In this document: in pieces, positions 3,340-63,774 of the stretch
Position numbering within the stretch: the stretch's first letter is position 1
How the letters are laid out: every line of letters starts with the position of its first letter
Origin: Gemmatimonadales bacterium
GTDB lineage: Bacteria > Gemmatimonadota > Gemmatimonadetes > Gemmatimonadales > GWC2-71-9
Reading direction: 5' to 3'
Assembly (NCBI GenBank): GCA_050184075.1
Contig: JBFXAS010000001.1
Span: 32,013 to 96,012, forward strand
Length of the DNA: 64,000 nt
The notes under the pieces: generated by a model
What the model was told of the DNA's origin: nothing
Seen by the model: only the letters and a program-made list of their open reading frames with translations
The model's database searches: none
Translations under genes and position numbers: made by a program

Positions 3340-4614
3340 TCAGGCCCTGCCGGTCACCCGCCCGATGGCTTCGAGGGCGCGGTCGACGTCGGCCAGCGTG
3401 ACGGCCACGCAGGGGCTGAAACGGAGGCCGCCGGTCGGCGAGCTGATCACGCCGTGGTCGCGGTAGAGCCGCTCGTGCCATTCGGCCGCCCGCTTGGGCT
3501 CCACGTCGATGATCCGCACCGCCAGGCTCACCTCCGGACTCCGTGGCGTCACCATCGGCAGCCCGAGCGCGGCCAGGCCGTCGGCGATCCGGGCCGACAG
3601 CTCCGCGGTGCGGGCGAAGATCCGATCCGGGCCGACGGTGGCGTGGAACCCGAGGGCCGCTTCGAGCCCGGCGGTGGCCGCGTCGTCGCGCTGACCCATC
3701 GTCTCGAACCGTCGGGCCCCCACCACCGCCGGCGTCACCTCGTTGCCCCAGCCCGCGCCGACCACGCCCGGCCAGACCTCGCGGAGCCGTGACTCCCGCA
3801 CGAAGAGGAGTCCCATCTCCCGGGGGCCCATCAGCCACTTCTGGGTGCTGGCCGCGAACGAGTCAGCGCCCAGGGCGCCGAGGTCGATCCGCATCGCGGC
3901 GAAGGTCTGCGCGCCGTCGACGTGGGTGTAGATGTTCCGCGCCCGCGCCCACTGGCAGAGCTCCGCCGCGGGGATCCTGAGGCCGGAGACGTTGGAGACG
4001 TGCGAGAACCCGATCACCCGGGTGCGCGGTCCGACCGCCGAGGCGAAACGATCGAGCAGCTCCGCCGGGCTCTTGGGGTTGGCGGGCAACGAGATCCGGC
4101 GCACCGCGAATCCCATCCGGGCCGCCCTCACCTCCCAGGCGACGTTATTGGTCGGGTGGTTCTGCTCGAAGAGCAGGACCTCGTCGTCGGGACGGAGATC
4201 CAGGCCGGCCACCACGATGTTGTTGGCTTCCGAGGCGTTGCGGACGATCGCCAGCTCGTCGGGTCGGGCCCCGAGCATCGCGGAGAGGCGCTCGCGGACT
4301 CGCTCCTTGGCCTCGCCGAATCGGGCCCGACTCTGATACGAGACGTCGGCGTCGACGTGGCGGGTCGCCTGGTCGAGCGCGGCCACCACCGACTTCGGCG
4401 CCGGCGACATGTTGGCGGAGTTGAGGGAGATGGTCCGTTGGCCGGGAAGGAACTCTCCGCGGAGCCGCTCCCAGTCCGGCTCGTCGAAGCGCCCGGGCCC
4501 GCGCGGGGCGGCCGGCAGCGGAGGGCGGAGCCGGGGTAGCCCGTGCAACACGCCCGCGCCCAGGGAAGCGCCGGCCAGGCCGGCCACGAAGCCTCGTCGC
4601 GTCGTCGACGCCAT
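3340..4614 (-). CDS. Class V aminotransferase-fold PLP-dependent enzyme with twin-arginine signal
   Basis: Real start MASTTRRGFVAGLAGASLGAG (ATG at 4614, checked as 'cat' on the plus strand). Class V pattern NASEANNIV...HVDGAQ...ASTQKWLMGP, with a putative PLP lysine. The upstream 387 codons of the 811-aa track ORF are R/P/G-rich shadow sequence. Confidence 0.8.
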   Translation of the reverse strand: MASTTRRGFVAGLAGASLGAGVLHGLPRLRPPLPAAPRGPGRFDEPDWERLRGEFLPGQRTISLNSANMSPAPKSVVAALDQATRHVDADVSYQSRARFGEAKERVRERLSAMLGARPDELAIVRNASEANNIVVAGLDLRPDDEVLLFEQNHPTNNVAWEVRAARMGFAVRRISLPANPKSPAELLDRFASAVGPRTRVIGFSHVSNVSGLRIPAAELCQWARARNIYTHVDGAQTFAAMRIDLGALGADSFAASTQKWLMGPREMGLLFVRESRLREVWPGVVGAGWGNEVTPAVVGARRFETMGQRDDAATAGLEAALGFHATVGPDRIFARTAELSARIADGLAALGLPMVTPRSPEVSLAVRIIDVEPKRAAEWHERLYRDHGVISSPTGGLRFSPCVAVTLADVDRALEAIGRVTGRA

Positions 4615-4731
4615 CCGTATGCTCCTGGAGGGAAGGGCTGAAAGGTATCGCCGCTTGACATCTCCGGCGACGCGCCGCAGCATCAAGCCCTGACCAGCCG
4701 GACCCCACAACCCGAGATTCCGAGGCCGTCC

Positions 4732-52925: not shown

Positions 52926-55900
52926 ATGATCCGTCGCGCGCTCCCCCTCGTCGCGGTGCTCGGTCTCGTCGCGCTCTCCCCGGCCCTCGCCCAGCGCAAT
53001 CGCGCCCGGGCGGTCGAGCAGCCCGCCGCCCCCTACGTCGACCCCGCGCTCTATCAGAGCCTTCGCTTCCGTCACATCGGTCCCGAGGGCAATCGCGTCG
53101 CCTCGGTAGCGGGTGTGGCCGGCGACCCCGACGTCTACTATGCGGGCTCGGCCTCCGGCGGTATTGCCAAGAGCACCGACGGCGGAATCCACTGGACTCA
53201 AGTGTTCGACGACCAGCCGGTCTCCTCCGTCGGCGCCATCGCCGTCGCGCCCTCCGACCCCAACGTGGTCTTCGCCGGCACCGGCGAGCCCAACTTGCGG
53301 AGCAACATCTCGGTCGGCTGGGGCATGTTCAAATCGACCGACGCCGGCAAGAGCTGGCAGCGCGCCGGTCTCGAGGCCACCGGCCGGATCGGCCGGATCG
53401 CGATCCACCCGACCAACCCCGACGTGGTGCTCGCCACCGCGGTCGGCCACGGCTACGGTCCCCAGGCGGACCGGGGCGTCTACAAGACGATCGACGGCGG
53501 CAAGACCTGGAAGCAGGTCCTCTTCGTCGACCAGGACACCGGTGCCAACGACGTCGAGTTCGATCCCACCAACCCGCGGATCGTCTACGCGACCACCTGG
53601 CAGATCGTGATCTACACCTGGGGCCGGAAGAGCGGCGGACCCGGCAGCGGGATCTGGAAGAGCACCGACGGCGGCGACACCTGGACCCGGCTCACCGGAA
53701 ACGGGCTCCCGACCAAGCCGTTCGGCAAGGTCGACCTCGCGGTGGCCCAGAGCAGTCCGAATCGGATCTACGCCCTGATCGAGACCAGCGACGGCGTGCC
53801 CCTCCCCGGGGTCGAGGCCGAAGCGGGCGAGCTCTGGCGCTCCGACGACGCGGGCGCAACCTGGCAGGTGGTGAGCTACGATCGCGACCTGGCCGGCCGG
53901 ACCCAGTACTACACCCGGATGATCGTCGCGCCGGACAACGCCGACGAGGCCTACTTCCTCACCGCGAGCTGGGCCAAGACCCTCGACGGCGGCGCGACCA
54001 TCATCAACCCACCCTTCTCCGAGGTGCCGGGCGGCGACCACCACGACATCTGGATCGACCCGACCGATGCCGACCGGATGATCGTCGGCCACGACGGCGG
54101 GCTCTCGATCACCACCAACCGGGGCAAGAGCTGGCACATCGTGCAGCTGCCTAACGCCCAGCTGTACCACGTCACCGTCGACAATCGGATCCCCTACTAC
54201 GTCTACGGCAACCGCCAGGACGGCCCCTCCAGCCGCGGACCCAGCAACAGCCGGATGCAGTTCTTCTTCGGCGACGCGGGCATCCCCCGCGGCCTCTGGA
54301 GCTCGGTCGGCGGCGGCGAGAGCGGCTGGGCCACGCCCGACCCCGAGGATCCCAACCTGATCTGGTCGAGCGCCTCGGGCTTCGGCAGCGTCGGCGGCAT
54401 CGTGAGCCGCTTCGACGTCCGGACCGGGATCGCCACCTCAGTGGAGGTCTGGCCCGAGATGACCATCGGCCACTCGGCCGAGACCCTCAAGTACCGCTTC
54501 CAGTGGACCTTCCCGTTGCTGATTTCGCCGCACGACCGCAACCGGGTCTACGTCGGGAGCCAGCACGTCCACCAGACCACCGACGGCGGCCGCTCCTGGC
54601 GGGAGATCAGCCCCGACCTGACCCGGAACGACCGCTCCCGGATGGGCACCTCCGGCGGGCTCACCCCGGACAACGTGGGCGTCGAGTACGCCGGCGTCGT
54701 GTTCGCGATCGCCGAATCGCCGCTCGAGCGTGGGCTGATCTGGGCGGGCACCAACGATGGCCTGATCCAACTGACCACGAACGGCGGGCAGAGCTGGACC
54801 AACGTCACCCCGACGGTCGCGGGGATGCCGGAGTGGGGGACCGTGAGCAACATCGTCGCCTCCCGCTGGGACGCGTCGACCGCCTACGCCACGGTCGACG
54901 GCCACCAGGTGAACGATCGCACCCCCTGGGTGATCAAGACCACCGACCGTGGCGCCAGCTGGAGCCTGATCGTGGGCGGGATTCCCGAGACACCGCTCAG
55001 CTACGCCCATTGGGTCAAGGAAGACCCGATCCGCCGCGGTCTCCTCTATCTGGGCACCGAGAACGCGCTCTACGTCTCCTTCGACGACGGCGCCCGCTGG
55101 CAGCCGCTCCAGACCAACCTGCCGCACGCGCCGGTGCACGACGTCACCGTGCAGGAGCACTTCAACGACCTGGTGCTCGCCACCTACGGCCGCGGCTTCT
55201 GGATCATGGACGACGTCACCCCACTCCAGCAGCTGACCCCGGAGGTGATGGCGGCCAAGGCGCACCTCTTCCGTCCGCGCGCGGCGTATCGCTTCCGCCC
55301 GGCCGAGGCGCCGATGGCCCACTTCTACGATCCCGTGGCCGGCAGCAACCCACCCTACGGCGCCTCGCTCAACTACTGGCTCGCGGCCGAGCAGGAGGAC
55401 AGCGTCGCGATCGCCATCCTCGACGCCTCGGGAGCGGAGGTCCGCGCGCTCAAGGGGCCGGGCAAGGCCGGCATCAATCGGATCTACTGGGACCTCCTGG
55501 GCGAGCGCTCCAAGGAAGCCAGGCTGCGGAACAGCCCGCTCTACGCCCCGCAGGTTCGGGTCGAGATCGAGGGCCGCCCCTCGCCGAGCGTCGGACGGGT
55601 GAGGATGCTGGCACCGCCGGGCCGCTACACCGTCAAGCTGGCCGTGAACGGCGTGGAGCTGACCCAACAGCTCGAGGTCCGCAAAGATCCCAACACCCCC
55701 GGCTCCGATGCCGAGATCGCGACCCAGGCCCAATTCCATCGCGAGCTGACCGGCGAGCTGAACGACGTGGTCGAGATGATCAACGGCCTCGAGATCGCCC
55801 GCGCGCAATTGAAGGCCCTCGGCGCGGTGACCACCGACTCGGCGGTCAAGGGCGAGGCCGACTCGCTGGCGGCGCGGCTGGTCGCGGTCGAGGAGGACAT

Positions 55901-56177
55901 GGTGCAGCTCCGCATCACGGGCCGGGGGCAGGACCTGATCCGCTACCCGTCCATGCTGGCGGAGAAGCTGGTCTACCTGATCAACGACGTGGGCGGAACC
56001 GACCACGCGCCGACCGGGTCGCAGCGGGAGGTCGGCGCGGTCCTGCGCCAGAAAGCCCGGGAGGCCCGATCGGCCTACGATCGGGCGATGCGAGAGGACG
56101 TGGCGCGCTTCAACGCGCTGCTTCGAGACAAGGGGCTCGACGGCGTGATCGCCACGACCCCGCCCCGCACGAGCTAG
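52926..56177 (+). CDS. Sortilin/VPS10-like BNR (Asp-box) repeat beta-propeller protein, secreted
   Basis: Start MIRRALPLVAVLGLVALSPALAQ. Many S/T-x-D-x-G-x-S/T-W boxes (KSTDGGIHW, KSTDAGKSW, KTIDGGKTW, KSTDGGDTW, RSDDAGATW, TTDGGRSW, TTNGGQSW, TTDRGASW, SFDDGARW). Upstream track codons are antisense shadow. Confidence 0.8.
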   Translation: MIRRALPLVAVLGLVALSPALAQRNRARAVEQPAAPYVDPALYQSLRFRHIGPEGNRVASVAGVAGDPDVYYAGSASGGIAKSTDGGIHWTQVFDDQPVSSVGAIAVAPSDPNVVFAGTGEPNLRSNISVGWGMFKSTDAGKSWQRAGLEATGRIGRIAIHPTNPDVVLATAVGHGYGPQADRGVYKTIDGGKTWKQVLFVDQDTGANDVEFDPTNPRIVYATTWQIVIYTWGRKSGGPGSGIWKSTDGGDTWTRLTGNGLPTKPFGKVDLAVAQSSPNRIYALIETSDGVPLPGVEAEAGELWRSDDAGATWQVVSYDRDLAGRTQYYTRMIVAPDNADEAYFLTASWAKTLDGGATIINPPFSEVPGGDHHDIWIDPTDADRMIVGHDGGLSITTNRGKSWHIVQLPNAQLYHVTVDNRIPYYVYGNRQDGPSSRGPSNSRMQFFFGDAGIPRGLWSSVGGGESGWATPDPEDPNLIWSSASGFGSVGGIVSRFDVRTGIATSVEVWPEMTIGHSAETLKYRFQWTFPLLISPHDRNRVYVGSQHVHQTTDGGRSWREISPDLTRNDRSRMGTSGGLTPDNVGVEYAGVVFAIAESPLERGLIWAGTNDGLIQLTTNGGQSWTNVTPTVAGMPEWGTVSNIVASRWDASTAYATVDGHQVNDRTPWVIKTTDRGASWSLIVGGIPETPLSYAHWVKEDPIRRGLLYLGTENALYVSFDDGARWQPLQTNLPHAPVHDVTVQEHFNDLVLATYGRGFWIMDDVTPLQQLTPEVMAAKAHLFRPRAAYRFRPAEAPMAHFYDPVAGSNPPYGASLNYWLAAEQEDSVAIAILDASGAEVRALKGPGKAGINRIYWDLLGERSKEARLRNSPLYAPQVRVEIEGRPSPSVGRVRMLAPPGRYTVKLAVNGVELTQQLEVRKDPNTPGSDAEIATQAQFHRELTGELNDVVEMINGLEIARAQLKALGAVTTDSAVKGEADSLAARLVAVEEDMVQLRITGRGQDLIRYPSMLAEKLVYLINDVGGTDHAPTGSQREVGAVLRQKAREARSAYDRAMREDVARFNALLRDKGLDGVIATTPPRTS

Positions 56178-56530
56178 GAGCGGACGCGGGGGCGGGGGCG
56201 GCCGGGATCGATCAGGGGTCTGCTTTCGGGTGGCAGGAAGATCCTGAGCTGGACGGCCTGGGCGTCGTCGTCGTTGTTGCTGAAGACGGTGACGGTGACG
56301 TCGATGGCGTCGACCGGCGCCAGCGTCGCCCCCGTCGAGCCGCGGGCCCGAGGCACGGCTCGGGTCGCGGTCGCGACCCCGGATGGACTGGCTCGGCGGG
56401 CGACCGTCAGCGCCTGGATCTGGACGTCGGCCTGCGAGACCGCCTGGGCGCTCGCGAGCTGCGGGCCGGCGACGAGCAGCGTGGCGACGGTGGTGCCGAC
56501 CGAACCACCAGCGACAGAGCGCGACCTCAT
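56174..56530 (-). CDS. Small secreted protein (118 aa), beta-sandwich (CARDB/DUF11-like) guess
   Basis: MRSRSVAGGSVGTTVATLLVAGPQLASAQA signal peptide with an AAGGAAGG SD upstream of ATG 56530. ...IDVTVTVFSNNDDDAQAVQLRIFLP. Last gene of the CsgG-like operon. Not listed separately in the track because it is buried in an 818-aa shadow ORF. Confidence 0.5.
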   Translation of the reverse strand: MRSRSVAGGSVGTTVATLLVAGPQLASAQAVSQADVQIQALTVARRASPSGVATATRAVPRARGSTGATLAPVDAIDVTVTVFSNNDDDAQAVQLRIFLPPESRPLIDPGRPRPRVRS

Positions 56531-56565: not shown

Positions 56566-57600
56566 CTAACGTCGTTGCTCCTTGACCCGCACCACCTGAC
56601 CTCTGGCGATGCCCTGGCCGTCGACGATCCGCGCCGTGCTGTACTGCTCCAGCACCCGCTCCACGACCACGGCGCCCACCCGGGTCTCGGGCGCGCCAAG
56701 CGACTTGCCGGTCGCGGGATCCACCAACGCCTCGCCGGCCTCGAACACCTCCAGCTCCAGCCCGGGCTTCATCCCGTCGGCCAGGGCGGCGTTGAGGTAG
56801 ACCACCTCGTCGCGGACGTCGGCCACCCGGCCGCTCCAGCGGATCCGAGGCATCCCCGTGAGGATCGAGATCACCGCGTTCTGAATCGCCTGGCGGGAGG
56901 CGTGCCCGAGCGGCGTGGTCAGCTGGCCGTCGACGGAGTAGCTCTTTTCGTCCCGGATCAGATCGGCCGCGATGCCGGTCTGGCTGGCCTTGCCGGTGCC
57001 TTTGGCGGAGTAGACCACCTCGCCGGTCGACGCGTCGATCAGACGGAGGTCGATCACCACCGAGGCACTGACCCGCTCGGTCGCGACCGAGAGGCCTCGC
57101 ACGACGTTGGTGAGCGCCCCGCCGACGCTCGATTTCTCGAAGGTGAAGCCGGTGATGTCTCCCGTGATCAGCACCTGGGCGCCGAGCAAGGCGCCGGAGG
57201 CCGCTGCGGTCTCCACGGTCACCCGGCCGCCCGCGGTCAGGGCCTGTTCCTGCTCCACCTGACTCATCGCGGCTCGCTCCAGCACCGTGAATCGACCGGT
57301 CCGGATCAGCACCGAGGTCAGCATCTCGGTCAGGCCCCGGGCGAACTCGGTCGGGGGCGGGATCGCGATCGCCACTGTGGTCTGCTGCGCCTGGCCCGGT
57401 TGGGCGTAGGGCTGCGCGGCCGGCGGCACGGCCATCGGCATCTGGGTGGTCTGGATGCGGAGGGCGCTCCCCGACAGGTCCAGCACCGCCACCCGGAGCC
57501 TCGCCCCGACCTCGGCCTGGGCCGGGAGCGCCGCGGGCCGGAGCGCGAGAGCGAGCGCGCCGAGCGCCCCTGCCACCCGACCGAGCGAGCCACCAAACAT
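56566..57600 (-). CDS. CsgG-family (curli-type secretion pore-like) protein with C-terminal extension
   Basis: Signal peptide without Cys. RLRVAVLDLSG...LTEMLTSVLIRTGRFTVLERAAMSQVEQEQAL...GAQVLITGDITGF...VVIDLRLIDASTGEVVYSAKG follows the CsgG-family pattern. An extra about 90-aa beta-rich C-terminus (RVADVRDEVVYLNAALADGMKPGLELEVF...). Confidence 0.7.
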   Translation of the reverse strand: MFGGSLGRVAGALGALALALRPAALPAQAEVGARLRVAVLDLSGSALRIQTTQMPMAVPPAAQPYAQPGQAQQTTVAIAIPPPTEFARGLTEMLTSVLIRTGRFTVLERAAMSQVEQEQALTAGGRVTVETAAASGALLGAQVLITGDITGFTFEKSSVGGALTNVVRGLSVATERVSASVVIDLRLIDASTGEVVYSAKGTGKASQTGIAADLIRDEKSYSVDGQLTTPLGHASRQAIQNAVISILTGMPRIRWSGRVADVRDEVVYLNAALADGMKPGLELEVFEAGEALVDPATGKSLGAPETRVGAVVVERVLEQYSTARIVDGQGIARGQVVRVKEQRR

Positions 57601-57603
57601 TGC

Positions 57604-58527
57604 CTAACGCTCCTGCTCGGGTGCGGGCTTGGCGAGAATCTCCACCCGGGCGTCGCCGAGCTTGGGGAGCTTCCGCTCGGGATCGAGACCGGGTGGCTCG
57701 CTCCGGAGCTCCAACCGGCCCTCGATGCCGGCCATCGCGAGGTGAGCCGACAGCTTGGTGAGGCGCCGCCGGGCCATCGCGGTATCCGGCGGCGACTTGC
57801 CGTTCGACTCCGGCGGGAGGTTCAAGACAAACTCGCCGTCGAGTGACTGGAGCGCCTCGGCCAGGAAGGCGAAGCTCTCGGTGACGTCGTGCTTGAGCGC
57901 GTCGCTCGCTCCGACGAACCGAACCGCCTTGAGCTCGAGCCGGCCCTCGGAGAGGTCTTCGATCATGCTCTCGGCCGTCTGACCCTTGCCGAAGAGACCG
58001 CCGAGAGCCTTCACCCCCTTGGCCGCGACCGGGGCCGCCCCGACCGCCAAGCCGACCGGCGTCACCGCCGCCACCGCACCGATCGCCGAGGCGGCTCCGG
58101 GGGTGGTTCCTGGCACCACCTGGCCGCCGGACGCGGCCTGCGCGGCAGCTTGAGCCTGCATCGCCGCGACCATCGCCTGTTGCCCGGCGAGCGAGGAGTC
58201 CGGAACGCACGTCGGCGCCGGCGCACCGGCCGTGGAAGGCCGCTCGGCCCCTCCGAGCGCCTTCTTCACTTGCCCGACCGCAGCCGTGCCGACGGTCGCC
58301 GACCCGGCGGCCGTGGTGCCGACGGGACACTCGCCGGCGCTGAGCCGCAGCGCTCCCGTACCGAGCGCCGAGTCGACCACCGCCGCCGCGGTCTGGGCGG
58401 CGGCCGTGTCGATGGCCGTGGTCACCGCCCCCTTGAGTCGTTTGGCGAGCGTCGCCTTGGGTTGCTGCGCCGAGAGTCCCGGGACAGCCAGCGTGAGCAT
58501 CGTCAGCACCAAGCATGGAGTTGTCAT
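57604..58527 (-). CDS. Secreted Ala/Gly-rich protein with degenerate OmpA-C-like C-terminal domain
   Basis: Start MTTPCLVLTMLTLAVPGLSAQ with a GGAGGGTGAG SD. An alternative ATG at 58566 overlaps the upstream stop. About 150 aa of A/G/T/V low complexity, then EGRLELKAVRFVGASDAL...ARRRLTKLSAHLAMAGI...GDARVEIL. Confidence 0.6.
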   Translation of the reverse strand: MTTPCLVLTMLTLAVPGLSAQQPKATLAKRLKGAVTTAIDTAAAQTAAAVVDSALGTGALRLSAGECPVGTTAAGSATVGTAAVGQVKKALGGAERPSTAGAPAPTCVPDSSLAGQQAMVAAMQAQAAAQAASGGQVVPGTTPGAASAIGAVAAVTPVGLAVGAAPVAAKGVKALGGLFGKGQTAESMIEDLSEGRLELKAVRFVGASDALKHDVTESFAFLAEALQSLDGEFVLNLPPESNGKSPPDTAMARRRLTKLSAHLAMAGIEGRLELRSEPPGLDPERKLPKLGDARVEILAKPAPEQER

Positions 58528-58562
58528 CGCTCTCACCCTCCAGTGGGTTTCTTGCGGTGTCG

Positions 58563-59003
58563 TCATTCGATTCGAAGCAGCTCGATCCGGGCGTCCCCGG
58601 GCCGTACCGCCCGGATCTCCCGAGAGGCAAGCCTGGCCGCCTCGACCGGGCCGACGAGGTGGGCGGGGTTCGAGCCGGCGGCGAGCAGCGCCCGGTAGGC
58701 GGTGAAGGAGCGCCGCCGGCTCAGCACCGTGTCGGCCGGCAACGAGGGCGTCAGCTCGGCAGGCACGTAGACCGCGAACTTTCCCTGGCTACGGTTCAGA
58801 GCGCGGGCTGCCTGCTCGAGCAGGGCCTCGTACCCCTGGGCCAGGTGGTCGTCGGTTTGCCTGAAGCGGACCCGGTCCAGCACCAGCCGGCCCTCCGCCA
58901 GGCGGGTCACCATCGTCTCGATCGAAGGCAGCTGATGGGCTCGACCCCCGGTCGGAGCCACCAGTCCAACGCTCGCGATCCACGCCATCGCCCACCCGAC
59001 CAT
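58563..59003 (-). CDS. Small paralogue of the degenerate OmpA-C-like domain protein
   Basis: ATG 59003 is preceded by AGGGAGGACCG. MVGWAMAWIASVGLVAPTGG..., then EGRLVLDRVRFRQTDDHL...SRRRSFTAYRALLAAG...GDARIELL, colinear with the C-terminus of the next gene. The longer start at 59066 would leave no room for a promoter. Confidence 0.55.
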   Translation of the reverse strand: MVGWAMAWIASVGLVAPTGGRAHQLPSIETMVTRLAEGRLVLDRVRFRQTDDHLAQGYEALLEQAARALNRSQGKFAVYVPAELTPSLPADTVLSRRRSFTAYRALLAAGSNPAHLVGPVEAARLASREIRAVRPGDARIELLRIE

Positions 59004-59060
59004 CGGTCCTCCCTGCCAGGCTCGCTGGCCTCCGGCACGGCGGCTATCTTGGGTCAGCGC

Positions 59061-59102
59061 GCTCACTGCCTGATCAGGCTTCGATCATCTCCCGATCAAA
59101 CC
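59061..59102 (-). promoter_or_regulatory. TGATC direct repeats at 11-bp phase (3 exact + 1 degenerate), oriented toward the CsgG-like operon
   Basis: Minus strand: TT TGATCG GGAGA TGATCG AAGCC TGATCA GGCAG TGAGCG. T positions are 59098, 59087, 59076, 59065. Includes the perfect palindrome CCTGATCAGG (59069-59078). Confidence 0.5.
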
Positions 59103-59111
59103 CCACGCAAC

Positions 59112-61910
59112 GTGTTCAGGATCAACCTGTTCGGCGGACTGTCGGTGGCCAGGGACGGGAGCCCGGTCGAGGGCCTCCCCTCCCGCAGGGCCGCCCTCCT
59201 GGCGGCCCTGGCGATCGCCGGCCGGCGGGGCTTGAGCAGGGATCGCCTCCTCTTGTTCCTCTGGCCGGACGCGACGGAAGAGCGGGCCCGGCATTCGCTG
59301 GCCCAGTCGGTGTACAGCCTCCACAAGCTCCTCGGCCAGGAAATCGTCGAATCCGGCGCTCAAGAGCTCCGGCTGGCCGAGTCGTTGGCGGAGTCCGATC
59401 TCGCGGAGTTCTTCGAGGCTCACGCCCGGGGCGACTGGGGAACGGCGGCGGCCCTCTATCGAGGCCCGCTGCTGGACGGCTTTCTCCTTGCCGATGCCTC
59501 GGAGTTCGACACCTGGGTCAGCGCAGAGCGGGCCAGGGTCGAGGGGCTGGCCCGCGACGCCATCGAGGCGGATGCGCGCCAGGCCGACGAGTCGGGAGAC
59601 CCCCTGGCCGCTTCGCGGTGGCGACGGCTGGTCGAGCTCGACCCCCTGACCTCTCGCTACGCCATCGGCTATGCCAGGGCCCTGACCCGCTCCGCCGATC
59701 CAGGAAGCGCCGTCCGCCACCTCCGCGAGCACATCCGGTTGCTCAAGAACGAGCTCAACCTCCCTGCCCCCGCCGAGGTGTCCGCGCTGATCAGCGAGTT
59801 GACCCGGCGCGCGCAACCGGAACCGCCGCGCCGGGTAGCGGCGGAGGACCCGGGCGGGCCGGCCGAGGCCGTGGACCCGATGGCGACGCCCGCGGCGATC
59901 GCCGGCGAGGCGGAGTCCATCGCCCCCGAGCCAACCGAGCCCCGCGCGCCGCCGATCCCCACCCCCGCGCTCCCTGCCAGGACCCGGCGTTGGCTGATTC
60001 CCGCGACCCTGGTGGTCGCGGGCGCTCTCGCCGTCGGCTGGACCTGGTGGATCCGACAGCCCGCCCGGGCGGTCACCGGAGGCGCACGAGTGGTCCTCAC
60101 CGACGTCGAGAACTTGACCAGCGACTCGACCCTCGGCCGGGCAATGACCGCCGCGTTCCAGGCCGGCCTGGCGCAGGCCGGGAACTTTTCCCTCTATCCG
60201 CGGGCCCGACTCAGGGCGACACTGGCCCGAATGGGGCGTGCCATCACCGACACCACCCTCAGCGAGTCACTGGCGCGAGAGGTCGCGGCCCGCGAAGCGG
60301 GTCAGGCGGTGGTCTCGGTAGCGGTCGTGGAGGTCGGAGATCGTTTCGACCTGAGCGGACGGATCGTCGATCCCGCGAGCGGTCAGACCCTCGCGGCCCG
60401 CCGAATCGCCGTGAGCGGCCGGGCCGGTCTGCTCGACGCGGCCGGCACGCTCACCGCCTGGATCCGCCAGAAGCTGGGCGACCTCCGCTGGGACACCGGG
60501 CCGCCGCTGCCGCTGGTGACGACCAGCTCGCTGCCGGCGCTCGAGGCCGTCGGCGGCGCGTTCATTGCCTATCAGGACTTCGAGTTCGCCAAGGCTCGCG
60601 CGCTGCTCGAGCATGCCTTCGCGCTCGACACCGGGTTCGCCTGGGCCCAGGCGATGCTCGGCAACCACCACCTGCTCGTCAACAACGTGCCCGAGGCCTT
60701 GCGCTGGCTGCGCGAGGCCGATCGGCGCGCCGCGCGACTCACCGAGCCGGAGCAGCTTCAGGTCAGGACGCTGCTCGCCCGGGCCGAGGGGCGCTACGAC
60801 GCCATGGCCGACTACGCCGCCACCTTGGCCGACCGCTTTCCCTCCTCGCCCAACTGGGCGCTCTACGGAGGGGCCCTGCGGTTCGCCAACCGGGACCCGG
60901 AGGCGGTGACCGCGTTTCGGCGCGCCCTGGCGATCGACTCGAACGACCTCGATGCCTATCACGGTTTGGCGTTGGCCCAAAGGGCCGTGGGCAACTACCG
61001 GGAAGCGCTCGACGCTTTCGCGGCGATCGATCGGCGCGACTCGACCTTTCTGCTGGCGATCTTCTACAACCAGCAATGGGGCGAGACCTACGTACTCACC
61101 GGCGACTTGGCGGGTGCCGATTCGGTATTCAGGCGAATGCTGACCCGCCCTCGAAACGGAGACCGGGCCCGCGGACATCGCGCGCTGGCCTACCTCGCGC
61201 TCTACCAGGGGCGGTTTCGAGAAGCGACCCACCAGCTCCGAGCCGCGATTCAGCTCCAGGACCCCGGCAGCCTCTCCGAATACCGCGACCAGCTGCTGCT
61301 GGCGGACGTATCCCGTACCCTCGGCGACCGCCGGGTCGCGGACGCGGCGCTCGACCGGGCCCTCGCGATCTTCCACACCGCCAATATCCAGGCGGCGGCC
61401 GTGATGTTCGGCGGGCACCAGCTCGTCCGGGCCGGTCGTCTCGAGCAGGCCTCGCTCTTCCTCGACTCCCTGGCGACCCGAGCCCGGCTCCGGCCGGAGT
61501 CGGAGCAGGACCAGGCGGCCCTGGCGATCCTGCGCGGGGATCTCGCGCTCGCCCGCCGACGACCGGCGGACGCCCGCCAGGCGCTCGATCGACGCGACTT
61601 CGAGGCCTACGACGCACTCGGGTTCCAGCTCCGCGCCGAGACGTTCGAGGCCCTTGGTCCGCCCGACTCGGCCCTGGCGATGGCCCGGCTGGCCACCGAG
61701 CGTTTCCGCTTCGGCCTCGAGGTCCAGACCGACTGGCTGCGAAGCTTCGAGACCCTGGGCCGCGTGGCGGAGGCGGCCGGAGACCAGGCGACGGCCCGCG
61801 AGGCCTGGTCGAAGCTGATCGAGCTCTGGAAGAACGCCGACCCCGACCTCCCACCCCTGCTCCGGGCGCGGCAAGAGTTGGCCCGCCTTCAGGCCGAAGC
61901 CAACCGTTGA
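59112..61910 (+). CDS. Membrane-anchored SARP-type regulator: OmpR-like wHTH + BTAD, one TM helix, extracytoplasmic domain + TPR repeats
   Basis: GTG start gives MFRINLFGGLSVARDGSPVEGLPSRRAALLAALAIAGRRGLSRDRLLLFLWPD (wHTH). ...AALYRGPLLDGFLLADASEFDTWVSAERARV... (BTAD). TM helix WLIPATLVVAGALAVGWTWWI (about 59991-60053). The C-terminal about 470 aa are TPR-like (AYHGLALAQRAVGNYREALDAFAAI...). Confidence 0.8.
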   Translation: MFRINLFGGLSVARDGSPVEGLPSRRAALLAALAIAGRRGLSRDRLLLFLWPDATEERARHSLAQSVYSLHKLLGQEIVESGAQELRLAESLAESDLAEFFEAHARGDWGTAAALYRGPLLDGFLLADASEFDTWVSAERARVEGLARDAIEADARQADESGDPLAASRWRRLVELDPLTSRYAIGYARALTRSADPGSAVRHLREHIRLLKNELNLPAPAEVSALISELTRRAQPEPPRRVAAEDPGGPAEAVDPMATPAAIAGEAESIAPEPTEPRAPPIPTPALPARTRRWLIPATLVVAGALAVGWTWWIRQPARAVTGGARVVLTDVENLTSDSTLGRAMTAAFQAGLAQAGNFSLYPRARLRATLARMGRAITDTTLSESLAREVAAREAGQAVVSVAVVEVGDRFDLSGRIVDPASGQTLAARRIAVSGRAGLLDAAGTLTAWIRQKLGDLRWDTGPPLPLVTTSSLPALEAVGGAFIAYQDFEFAKARALLEHAFALDTGFAWAQAMLGNHHLLVNNVPEALRWLREADRRAARLTEPEQLQVRTLLARAEGRYDAMADYAATLADRFPSSPNWALYGGALRFANRDPEAVTAFRRALAIDSNDLDAYHGLALAQRAVGNYREALDAFAAIDRRDSTFLLAIFYNQQWGETYVLTGDLAGADSVFRRMLTRPRNGDRARGHRALAYLALYQGRFREATHQLRAAIQLQDPGSLSEYRDQLLLADVSRTLGDRRVADAALDRALAIFHTANIQAAAVMFGGHQLVRAGRLEQASLFLDSLATRARLRPESEQDQAALAILRGDLALARRRPADARQALDRRDFEAYDALGFQLRAETFEALGPPDSALAMARLATERFRFGLEVQTDWLRSFETLGRVAEAAGDQATAREAWSKLIELWKNADPDLPPLLRARQELARLQAEANR

Positions 61911-61932: not shown

Positions 61933-61976
61933 TGATCAGGGCGTGATCCCGCGCTGACCGAGATCTGATCGGACCG
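61933..61976 (+). promoter_or_regulatory. Four TGAYC direct repeats at 11-bp phase upstream of the triple-repeat protein gene
   Basis: Plus strand: TGATCA GGGCG TGATCC CGCGC TGACCG AGATC TGATCG GACC. T positions are 61933, 61944, 61955, 61966. Lies in the 103-bp gap between the regulator stop and ATG 62014. Confidence 0.5.
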
Positions 61977-62013
61977 CCGCAGCTTGGCCCCGTCCATCGA
62001 ATGGTCAGGGTCC

Positions 62014-63774
62014 ATGACAGTCCGGCAGATACTCGCTCCCCTCGCGGTCGCCGTCAGCCTGAGCTCCGGCGGGCTGGCGGCTCAAGCCTCGCGCACCTTC
62101 AAGTTCTCGTTCACCGTGAAGCACACCGCGCCGTCCTCGCAGCAGCCCCACCCCTTGGTGTCGTTGAGTGTGGATCCCGGAAGGAAGTTGGTCGGTGGAG
62201 GCGGCTTCGCGGACTGGCGCGGAGCCGGCAGCTTGCTCGATCGCCTGCGCCCCGTCGGGCTCGCCTGGGAAGCCGGCTCGAAGGATCATGCCTTTCAGGA
62301 CCCGACGGCGCTCACCGGCTATCTGGTGCAGCTCGACGATCCGGCCAGCCTCTACGCGGTCACCGTGGTCGAAGCGGTGAGCCCCCCGAGCAGCCGTCCG
62401 ACGGTGCAGGCGGTGCTGCCCCCGGGCTTCGTCCTGACTGGCGGCGGGTGTTGGGCGGACTGGCGGTCGACCGGGGGGGCGGGCCTCCTGCTGACCGGCT
62501 CCTACCCGGACGAGGTCACCCAGCGGGCCTGGATCTGCGAGGCGAAGGACCATCTCGTCCCGAGCCCCGGGGCGCTCCGCGCCTATGTGATCGGGATGCG
62601 CGCGCTGACCGGCGCCCAGCCGGTCGTGGCCATCACCAAGGCAACCAGCGCGATCGGGGCGGCGCCGGTCGCGCGGGCGAATGTGGCCCCGTACTTCGAG
62701 GTGACCGGCGGCGGCGCCCGGGCCGAGGTGTGGCGCGGGGCCACGCTCGCGAGGTCGGGAGCCACGAACACCATGGCCGCTCCGAGCCGGACGGCCGCAC
62801 GGCTGCAAGCGGCGGCGGACAGCGGAGTCCTGCTCACCGCGTCCTTTCCCATCATGGGAACCGGAACGGCGAGAGTCGCCGTCGGTTGGGAGGCCCGCGC
62901 CAAGGATCACGGCGTCTCGAGCCCCGGAACGGTCACCGCCTACGTGATCGGGGTGAAGCTGCCGCCGCCTCCGTCGTCGTCCTCAACGCCTCCAACCGGC
63001 TCGGGCCCCGCGACCTGCGCCTGCGCGAGCACCGGGCCCTTCAGTGCGGCCGCGCCGGGATCGATCAGTGGCGGTCTCCAGGGGAGCTTCATCCACCCGA
63101 CCGACGGCGGCTTCACGGTCGCCGTTCAGTCGCTGAGCGGCGCGCCTCACCTGTCGATGACCAACGCGCAAGGTCAGTCCGTGCTCGACCTGACCGGTGT
63201 CGTGGCCTGGGGGCCGAGCCCCGATGGCCGATTCTTCGCCGTGGTGGCGTCGCCCGCCGGAACCAATGCCGGGAGTCCGATCACCGTCTATCGGGTCGCG
63301 CGGAGCACGACGCCGCTCCGCAGCGTCGTGTCCTCCCAGATCTGGCCCGACGGACGATGGGGCTGGAGCCCCGATGGCAGCGTGCTGCTGATCGAGCGCT
63401 TCGAGAATGCTCCGGTTCGCTATTCCCTGGAGTCCTACAACCTGCTCGCCGCCAATCCCACGCTGGCCGTGCTCCGAACCCAGGAGCTGTCCGCCTTCGG
63501 CCCGAGCGTCACCATGAGTCCCTGCGGTGATCGCTTGATGTACAGCCGCTGGCTCCAGCTCAACCCGCGTCAGGGCCAGCTCGATTTCTTCGCGCGGAAG
63601 GACTTCCCCTCGTCGCTCTCCGTCATCGCCGACTGGGACGGAGCCGCGGGTGCGATGAGCGCCAGCGTCGTCGCCGGCACCGGCACCAACGTCTATCTCG
63701 TCAGGCTCGCCGGAGCGAGGCTCCGGTCCAACGGGCAGACCACTTTCCCCAGTCGGCAGTGCGAAGCGCCGTGA
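62014..63774 (+). CDS. Secreted protein: three tandem copies of an unrecognised about 90-120-aa domain, P/S linker, C-terminal PD40/TolB-like beta-propeller repeats
   Basis: Signal peptide MTVRQILAPLAVAVSLSSGGLAAQA. Repeat motifs are ...GGG..(A)(D/E)(V)W...LL..S.P...W.A..KDH...P..L..Y(V/L)(I/V). PPPPSSSSTPPTGSGP linker. SPDGRFFAVVAS, WSPDGSVLLIERF and MSPCGDRLMYSRW in the C-terminal part. Confidence 0.7.
   Translation: MTVRQILAPLAVAVSLSSGGLAAQASRTFKFSFTVKHTAPSSQQPHPLVSLSVDPGRKLVGGGGFADWRGAGSLLDRLRPVGLAWEAGSKDHAFQDPTALTGYLVQLDDPASLYAVTVVEAVSPPSSRPTVQAVLPPGFVLTGGGCWADWRSTGGAGLLLTGSYPDEVTQRAWICEAKDHLVPSPGALRAYVIGMRALTGAQPVVAITKATSAIGAAPVARANVAPYFEVTGGGARAEVWRGATLARSGATNTMAAPSRTAARLQAAADSGVLLTASFPIMGTGTARVAVGWEARAKDHGVSSPGTVTAYVIGVKLPPPPSSSSTPPTGSGPATCACASTGPFSAAAPGSISGGLQGSFIHPTDGGFTVAVQSLSGAPHLSMTNAQGQSVLDLTGVVAWGPSPDGRFFAVVASPAGTNAGSPITVYRVARSTTPLRSVVSSQIWPDGRWGWSPDGSVLLIERFENAPVRYSLESYNLLAANPTLAVLRTQELSAFGPSVTMSPCGDRLMYSRWLQLNPRQGQLDFFARKDFPSSLSVIADWDGAAGAMSASVVAGTGTNVYLVRLAGARLRSNGQTTFPSRQCEAP

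Follow-up and report, generated by a model that had tools for sequence, protein, structure and literature searches.

Organization of the locus

The 64-kb window, which is the whole stretch of Gemmatimonadales DNA analyzed here and has a G+C content of 70.5%, carries on its plus strand the gene of a 932-residue regulator (59112..61910) and on its minus strand a divergently oriented operon that includes a CsgG-like gene. Both gene starts assigned by the earlier, sequence-only reading of this DNA hold. The regulator GTG at 59112 agrees with the NCBI call (P0001, 932 aa), and the ATG at 59003 of the first operon gene is preceded by the Shine-Dalgarno sequence GGGAGGA and is the start called by NCBI (P0077, 146 aa). 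The regulator gene of the window has no Shine-Dalgarno sequence.

The first operon gene (58563..59003, minus strand) encodes a 146-residue protein with an OmpA/MotB/Pal-like fold, as indicated by an AF2 model (pLDDT 81) and a Foldseek search that retrieved MotB, PomB, Pal and YfiB at E-values of 4e-5 to 1e-3. Only five homologs were found in a database of 5.8 billion proteins, which points to a narrow, lineage-specific family. The second gene (57604..58566, minus strand) encodes a 320-residue protein whose C-terminal part is homologous to the 146-residue protein and for which a family search gave no match, and the third (56566..57600, minus strand) encodes a 344-residue CsgG-family protein (Pfam CsgG, E=2.3e-30). 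A probable fourth gene (56174..56530, minus strand) encodes a protein of 118 residues with a signal peptide and a QADVQIQALTV motif. A search for Rfam families between positions 55000 and 64000 gave no match at E<=1.

Between the regulator gene and the operon lies a block of four direct repeat units of 11 bp, array 1 (59055..59098, minus strand), which reads toward the CsgG-like operon. Its units are TGATCGGGAGA (59098-59088), TGATCGAAGCC (59087-59077), TGATCAGGCAG (59076-59066) and TGAGCGCGCTG (59065-59055), all on the minus strand. The sequence-only reading had pointed to TGATC at 59098, 59087 and 59076 and to TGAGC at 59065; rereading the sequence confirmed these starts and their spacing of exactly 11 bp. 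The layout it gave the block, three units plus a degenerate one, is refined here to four units, the first of which starts 14 bp from the regulator GTG. The palindrome CCTGATCAGG that it had also reported (59069-59078) is indeed perfect. As a candidate dimer site, this palindrome was rejected: it is conserved in no related array and we judge it incidental.

A second array, with the units TGATCAGGGCG, TGATCCCGCGC, TGACCGAGATC and TGATCGGACCG (61933..61976, plus strand), starts 23 nt past the regulator stop codon (61910) and reads toward the next gene, with no divergent gene on its other side. Each of the two arrays in the window is no more than 25 nt from one end of the regulator gene. Array 2 is followed, after 3 nt, by a putative -10 hexamer, CAGCTT (61980..61985, plus strand), whose first base is 14 nt beyond that of the last unit and which would place the start of transcription near 61992. 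The gene downstream (62014..63774, plus strand, ATG at 62014) encodes a 586-residue protein with a signal-peptide-like N-terminus, for which we obtained no family match and no homolog among the other regulator loci.

The regulator combines a SARP domain with a predicted transmembrane sensor module

Three parts can be distinguished in the regulator: a SARP domain, one predicted transmembrane helix and a TolB-like/TPR module. The SARP domain comprises an OmpR-type winged helix-turn-helix (wHTH) and a BTAD (aa 1-235). The BTAD (Pfam PF03704, aa 102-230) scored 26.0 bits, above its gathering cut-off of 22.1, and Pfam matched TPRs as well. The wHTH of EmbR was matched at aa 5-77 (phmmer, E=8.9e-5), and the match to Trans_reg_C is weak (E=0.001, under the cut-off). 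A profile built from three sequences and compared with the PDB retrieved the SARP domain of AfsR at 2.3e-6 (positions 18-249) and EmbR at 4.8e-6.

The AF2 model of residues 1-263 (pLDDT 93.8) is in line with these assignments. A Foldseek search of the PDB with this model returned EmbR at E=1.3e-10 over 256 columns and AfsR, from transcription initiation complexes, at E=7e-10 to 7e-9 over about 250 columns. EmbR and AfsR are the only strong PDB matches of the model and represent the only solved SARP domains. Profile comparisons and the predicted structure agree that the N-terminus of the regulator is a SARP domain (wHTH plus BTAD).

The only hydrophobic segment of the regulator (aa 293-315, KD19 hydropathy 1.57) lies between the SARP and the TolB-like/TPR parts. 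The SARP domain is accordingly predicted to be tethered to the membrane, with the remaining 600 residues outside the cytoplasm. The C-terminal TolB-like/TPR region resembles TIGR04510 (E=3.7e-38, which is below the cut-off of that family). TIGR04510 is the 'peptide modification system cyclase' family, and the resemblance extends over the transmembrane, TolB-like and TPR module of the regulator. In addition, residues 295-932 share 56-60% identity with Ser/Thr protein kinases of related organisms (P0005-P0010), over the C-terminal two-thirds of the kinases. A sensor module of one type is thus fused to different output domains in the regulator, in kinases and in TIGR04510-like proteins. The kinase and SARP fusions of a single sensor module recall the kinase-SARP pairs AfsK-AfsR and PknH-EmbR.

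The array is conserved beside regulators of the same family

Comparison loci were retrieved by protein similarity only, with the N-terminus of the regulator as the query, and not by the motif. The set consists of three contexts obtained by exact look-ups and of 62 loci, nearly all from Gemmatimonadota, that were drawn from metagenomes and GTDB genomes. Because the regulator served as the bait for every comparison locus, array and regulator co-occur in this set partly by construction, and the 64-kb window is the only unbiased sample for their pairing. Locus counts are not independent events either, because the loci are phylogenetically related. Synteny analysis with tblastn placed the regulator divergently from a homolog of the 146-residue protein in about 35 loci, which makes this protein the most constant divergent partner of the regulator family.

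Nearly all upstream regions carry four units led by TGA(T/C), spaced at exactly 11 bp and beginning 10-13 nt from the regulator start codon, and the related arrays always read away from the regulator. Among 44 non-identical upstream regions, we counted 87, 56 and 30 TGA-TGA pairs at distances of 11, 22 and 33 bp, respectively; shuffles of the same regions gave about 0.5 pairs, and the opposite strand gave 1, 0 and 0 at the three distances. All four units are present in 24 of these 44 regions and at least three of the four in 32. In an alignment of 18 group-2 loci, chosen without regard to the motif, all 18 share the G of each TGA, and the spacer columns vary. When the group-1 loci, which are close relatives, are considered together with array 2, the four TGA and the A and T of the -10 hexamer are invariant. 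The array is kept 10-13 nt from the regulator start codon across orthologues that are 43-55% identical, and arrays are retained by paralogous regulators with different neighbours (L031, L058/59, L061, L038).

The information content of the unit is concentrated in a strong TGAT, followed by weak preferences for C/T, G/C, G and G and by about three free positions. The phased repeats proposed by the sequence-only reading are therefore retained, whereas TGATC as the conserved word is replaced by TGA(T/C) with a weak GGG-rich tail, repeated with a period of 11 bp.

A hexamer at a fixed position downstream of the array, beginning 14 nt after the start of the last unit (+14), is conserved too. We examined it in 31 non-identical strict arrays, for the selection of which the +14 hexamer had not been used: it reads nAnnnT in 31/31 and TAnnnT in 28/31, with TACCGT, TATCCT, TAAGCT, TAAACT, TATCAT, TATGAT and others among its forms. 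These 31 arrays come from at least eight promoter contexts. The contexts include a small-protein gene (in two locus types), promoters of mid-protein/CsgG operons placed elsewhere, genes of small secreted proteins with a Q-x-D-x-x-IQ-x-LTV motif, and paralogous regulators.

The small secreted proteins bear on the probable fourth gene of the operon. Its 118-residue product has weak similarity (pairwise E=1e-5) to the small proteins encoded directly after the arrays in L058 (3418-3876, minus strand) and L059, and the Q-x-D-x-x-IQ-x-LTV motif of this product is also found in small proteins following arrays in L031, L020 and L016. Searches of Pfam and NCBIfam with the 118-residue secreted protein and its array-linked likenesses gave no family matches.

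The comparison also bears on the possibility that the repeats, made of a frequent word, arose by chance and have no function. A genome-wide scan for (TGATC-N6)x3, set against shuffled sequence, had been suggested by the sequence-only reading. Run on the window, such a scan found the pattern once, against 0.00 occurrences in 100 shuffles; the pattern is thus unique there, but the statistic is not decisive after the look-elsewhere effect, because GATC is frequent and triples of any 5-mer are common. The window contains 758 GATC sites versus 467 expected from dinucleotide-preserving shuffles, about 1.6x and with no sign of avoidance, and GATC triples are also present at other spacings. A triple of any 5-mer at a fixed spacing (6-24 bp tested) occurs about 0.8 times per spacing. 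The stricter TGA-N8 x4 is present at two sites of the window (59098-59063, minus strand; 61933-61968, plus strand), and shuffles gave 0.00. A relaxed scan that accepted at least three of the four TGA with nAnnnT at +14 recovered the same two sites only in the 64 kb, and 0 sites in 30 shuffles.

The reality of the array is settled by its sequence conservation in related loci and not by window statistics. Against a chance origin, the arrangement is kept across dozens of divergent loci in which the spacers vary, the TGA is invariant and the -10 hexamer is co-conserved, and a second copy of the array is present in the window. Chance is refuted by the peaks of TGA-TGA distances in the 44 regions together with the +14 hexamer in the 31 arrays, and we give this explanation a negligible probability. 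Comparison of the sequences thus confirms that the evenly spaced TGATC repeats are real and are part of a conserved promoter module located beside the regulator in many Gemmatimonadota.

The same arrays speak to the other interpretation offered by the sequence-only reading, in which the phased GATC sites would be targets of a methylation-dependent switch. Switches of this Dam type act in the phase variation of pap and agn43. Array 1 does contain three in-register GATC sites and array 2 three in register plus one more, and GATC is not avoided in the window. The number of in-register GATC sites, however, is not conserved: over 29 distinct arrays it is zero in five, one in 16, two in six and three in two, both of which are those of the window. 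Unit 4 is almost never GATC, the invariant element is TGA and not GATC, and in L001 the geometry is complete although only one GATC is present. The excess of GATC over expectation in the window makes its presence in an operator that prefers TGATC unremarkable, and a motif search of the 64 kb found no Dam-like ORF, which is weak evidence. We consider a methylation switch very improbable. The high GATC content of the window arrays seems to reflect that this lineage prefers TGATC to TGATT.

Promoter geometry and the regulator's own transcript

In the window, the hexamer at +14 of array 1 is CAAGAT (59046..59051, minus strand), the putative -10 element of the operon promoter. It predicts a start of operon transcription near 59039. 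The end of the array leaves no space for a normal -35 before this element; the array itself overlaps that position. The sequence-only reading had placed the repeats upstream of a promoter with room for a -10 box and a short leader; that room exists and contains the hexamer at its fixed distance, but the array covers the -35 and so does not lie upstream of a complete promoter. With the -10 located from conservation, the gap between it and the conserved core of the unit is 8, 7 or 6 bp, depending on whether the core is taken as 6, 7 or 8 bp.

A scan of the window, L054 and L012 for consensus sigma-70 promoters returned nothing in either direction, which is expected for activator-dependent promoters. 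Hairpins in the leaders between the -10 and the Shine-Dalgarno sequence were considered and rejected as a feature: their folding is no better than that of shuffled sequences in the window (z = -1.06), in L001 (-0.05) and in L002 (+0.61). An AAG(C/G)TA box was likewise dropped as the operon -10, in view of the universal TAnnnT at +14 (TACCGT in group-2 loci); the AAGSTA box lies further downstream.

The main interpretation of the sequence-only reading, a phased protein-binding operator for the CsgG-like operon, is thus supported at the sequence level by the conservation of the array beside the regulator and by a -10-like hexamer at a fixed distance. Array 1 fills the interval between the operon -10 and the regulator start codon, so the regulator transcript must start inside or beyond array 1. 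On the plus strand, TATCTT (59045..59050) overlaps the operon -10 and can be read as a candidate -10 of the regulator transcript; in the group-1 loci, TAGTTT or TAGCTT occurs where the window has TATCTT. A regulator transcript that starts from TATCTT and reads through array 1 is speculative.

Group-2 loci (L005, L009-L057; for example L054, 1958-2134, minus strand) have two further boxes, AAG(C/G)TA and CCGGCAAGCGG, between TACCGT and the start of the small gene. On the regulator strand these boxes read TTGCCG-N18-TA(G/C)CTT (TAGCTT or TACCTT), a possible regulator promoter directed through the array. The consensus promoter scan did not call TTGCCG-N18-TA(G/C)CTT.

If the regulator bound the array mainly as a repressor or roadblock, whether for the divergent operon, for its own gene or for the two together, the position of array 1, which spans the interval from the putative -10 to the regulator start and so overlaps the promoter or 5' region of the regulator, would be explained, as would the TAnnTT box on the opposite strand (TATCTT at 59045-59050 in the window; TAGCTT or TACCTT in relatives). 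A -10 that reads in the direction of the array and keeps a constant position at +14, together with the absence of a -35, is, in contrast, the hallmark of activation and not of occlusion, and array 2 has no divergent gene to repress. The SARP domains characterized so far are also activators (PMC10936776, PMC10972967). We regard a predominantly repressing role as quite unlikely; most likely, the module serves the regulator to turn on cell-envelope genes.

Comparison with characterized systems

In target promoters of SARPs, direct repeats recur at a spacing of 11 or 22 bp, and 8 bp separate the 3' repeat from the -10 (PMC10936776). In the cryoEM structures of AfsR, the contacts of every protomer are with the first 8 bp of its 11-nt repeat; the afs box extends from -40 to -19 and overlaps the -35, and the -10 (CACTGT) and -35 of afsS are weak (PMC10936776). 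The SARP dimer provides an alternative dock for sigma region 4, an arrangement termed 'sigma adaptation' (PMC10936776). The loci studied here follow the same spacing rule, with an exact 11-bp spacing of the units in arrays 1 and 2 and the peaks at 11, 22 and 33 bp across the 44 regions.

AfsR and the afs box of Streptomyces coelicolor are the closest parallel. Both systems have a SARP domain, 11-bp direct repeats on one face of the helix with about eight conserved and three free positions per unit, a proximal repeat a few bp from a weak -10, and a -35 that is overlapped or replaced; C-terminal TPRs are found in the 'large' members as well. Here, in contrast, there are four units instead of two, the leading word is TGAT, and the organisms are Gemmatimonadota and not Actinobacteria. 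The regulator has no NOD/ATPase domain and has instead a predicted transmembrane helix and an extracytoplasmic TolB-like/TPR module, and its predicted targets are envelope and secreted-protein genes rather than antibiotic clusters. The conserved core may also sit 1-2 bp nearer the -10: taken as the 8-bp TGATYGGG, it ends 6 bp from the hexamer, 1-2 bp closer than in the canonical description of SARP promoters.

Four units also exceed the two or three that are usual at SARP promoters. PimR, of the SARP-LAL type, offers a parallel with more than two phased units, each a heptamer plus spacer: its operator has three heptamers (CGGCAAG) with 4-nt spacers, and cooperative binding by the SARP domain has been described for PimR (PMC5930380). 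The operator of PimR is placed upstream of the -35 (class I-like), whereas the window array reaches to within a few bp of the -10. The paralogous regulators of L062 and L064 have two TGAT units only, 21 bp apart, followed by TATCAT at +13/+14, an arrangement that resembles the '22-bp spacing' variant of SARP promoters. A literature search for membrane-bound SARPs or for SARPs in Gemmatimonadota found nothing.

Two other groups of winged-helix activators share parts of this design. ToxR, CadC and TcpP are membrane-bound one-component wHTH activators that bind direct repeats near the promoters of envelope genes. Their layout resembles the predicted topology of the regulator: a single transmembrane helix links an OmpR-type winged helix in the cytoplasm to a sensor outside it. 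ToxR-like proteins, however, have no BTAD and have unrelated periplasmic domains, and their sequence relationship to the regulator is limited to the winged helix. With its BTAD, and with EmbR and AfsR as its best structural matches, the regulator does not fall into the ToxR/CadC family.

The PHO box of PhoB consists of tandem, head-to-tail 11-bp units (seven conserved plus four variable positions) that replace the -35 and lie about 10 bp from the -10. Response regulators of the PhoB/OmpR type thus also use tandem 11-bp units in place of the -35. The regulator differs from them in lacking a receiver domain, and the unit sequence is different. Pfam gave no match to Response_reg in the regulator, whose winged helix lies at the extreme N-terminus.

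A proposed model for envelope gene activation

On the basis of the sequence conservation, the predicted structure and the analogy with AfsR, we think it likely that the repeats are a four-unit SARP-type operator within an activator-dependent promoter, in which the bound regulator would substitute for the -35. The four 11-bp units would lie on one face of the helix, the last of them starting 14 nt before the -10, so that the array would cover the place of the -35. We infer that the binder is most likely the adjoining regulator, encoded about 10-14 bp away, and that it would act as an activator through its cytoplasmic SARP domain. By analogy with AfsR, protomers may bind head-to-tail, one per unit. 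The promoter-proximal pair would then replace the contact between sigma region 4 and the -35, and the distal pair could add cooperativity or contacts with the alpha-CTD.

For the identity of the binder there is a rival explanation, since 11-bp direct repeats that replace the -35 are common throughout the OmpR/PhoB superfamily. The operators could be real and yet be bound by another winged-helix protein, for example of the OmpR/PhoB family, encoded elsewhere, the SARP-like neighbour being merely co-regulated. The retrieval of all loci through the regulator leaves room for this explanation, part of the co-occurrence of array and SARP gene being a sampling artefact. So does L048, the closest relative (N-terminus 72% identical, from a Gemmatimonadales MAG), which has a regulator but neither an array upstream nor an OmpA-like/CsgG operon nearby (3700-4711); arrays are absent from the upstream regions of L034 and L035 too. 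Against it, the array keeps its place near the regulator start codon in the divergent orthologues and in paralogues that have other neighbours, and the only two arrays in the 64 kb both adjoin the regulator gene. We therefore consider a binder other than the adjoining regulator unlikely.

With the regulator as the binder, the copy in array 1 would drive the divergent operon, that is, the genes of the OmpA-like 146-residue protein, the 320-residue protein, the CsgG-like protein and the small secreted protein. The copy in array 2 would, in this lineage, drive the gene of the secreted 586-residue protein. Occupancy of array 1 would probably also lower the expression of the regulator itself. This autoregulation, a possibility already raised by the sequence-only reading, is inferred, like the start sites, from the layout of the promoter region and is plausible.

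A broader proposal is that Gemmatimonadota harbor a clade of membrane-tethered SARPs, which would sense the envelope through the TolB-like/TPR module, activate a local envelope regulon through the four-unit box and damp their own promoter. We hold the case for and against this proposal to be evenly balanced. If it is correct, the members of the clade would be one-component transmembrane signalling proteins, the local regulon would comprise OmpA-like proteins, a CsgG-like channel and small secreted proteins, and their TolB-like/TPR sensor would be the module that also occurs in fusion with Ser/Thr kinases and cyclase-like proteins. It would also define the first SARP operator and regulon outside Actinobacteria and would link the SARP mechanism of activation to ToxR-like membrane signalling.

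SARPs have been studied almost only as soluble activators of actinomycete antibiotic gene clusters; here, a SARP domain is fused to a predicted transmembrane, extracytoplasmic sensor module in an uncultured and poorly understood phylum. The module offers a natural test of the 'sigma adaptation' of AfsR outside Actinobacteria and with four protomers, and a handle on the control of CsgG-like systems in Gemmatimonadota. The candidate operator rule, four TGAT-led 11-bp units followed by N3 and TAnnnT, can be used to predict targets of the regulator clade in Gemmatimonadota genomes.

The position of the array also bears on gene annotation. In L001 (5973-6023) and L002 (3349-3435), the gene callers started the regulator 17 and 29 codons, respectively, upstream of the conserved GTG (VFRIN/VLRIK). 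The resulting N-terminal extensions run across the repeat array, are not conserved and probably represent mis-annotated starts; the regulator calls of L001 and L002, which had been extended over the operator, are corrected here to the conserved GTG.
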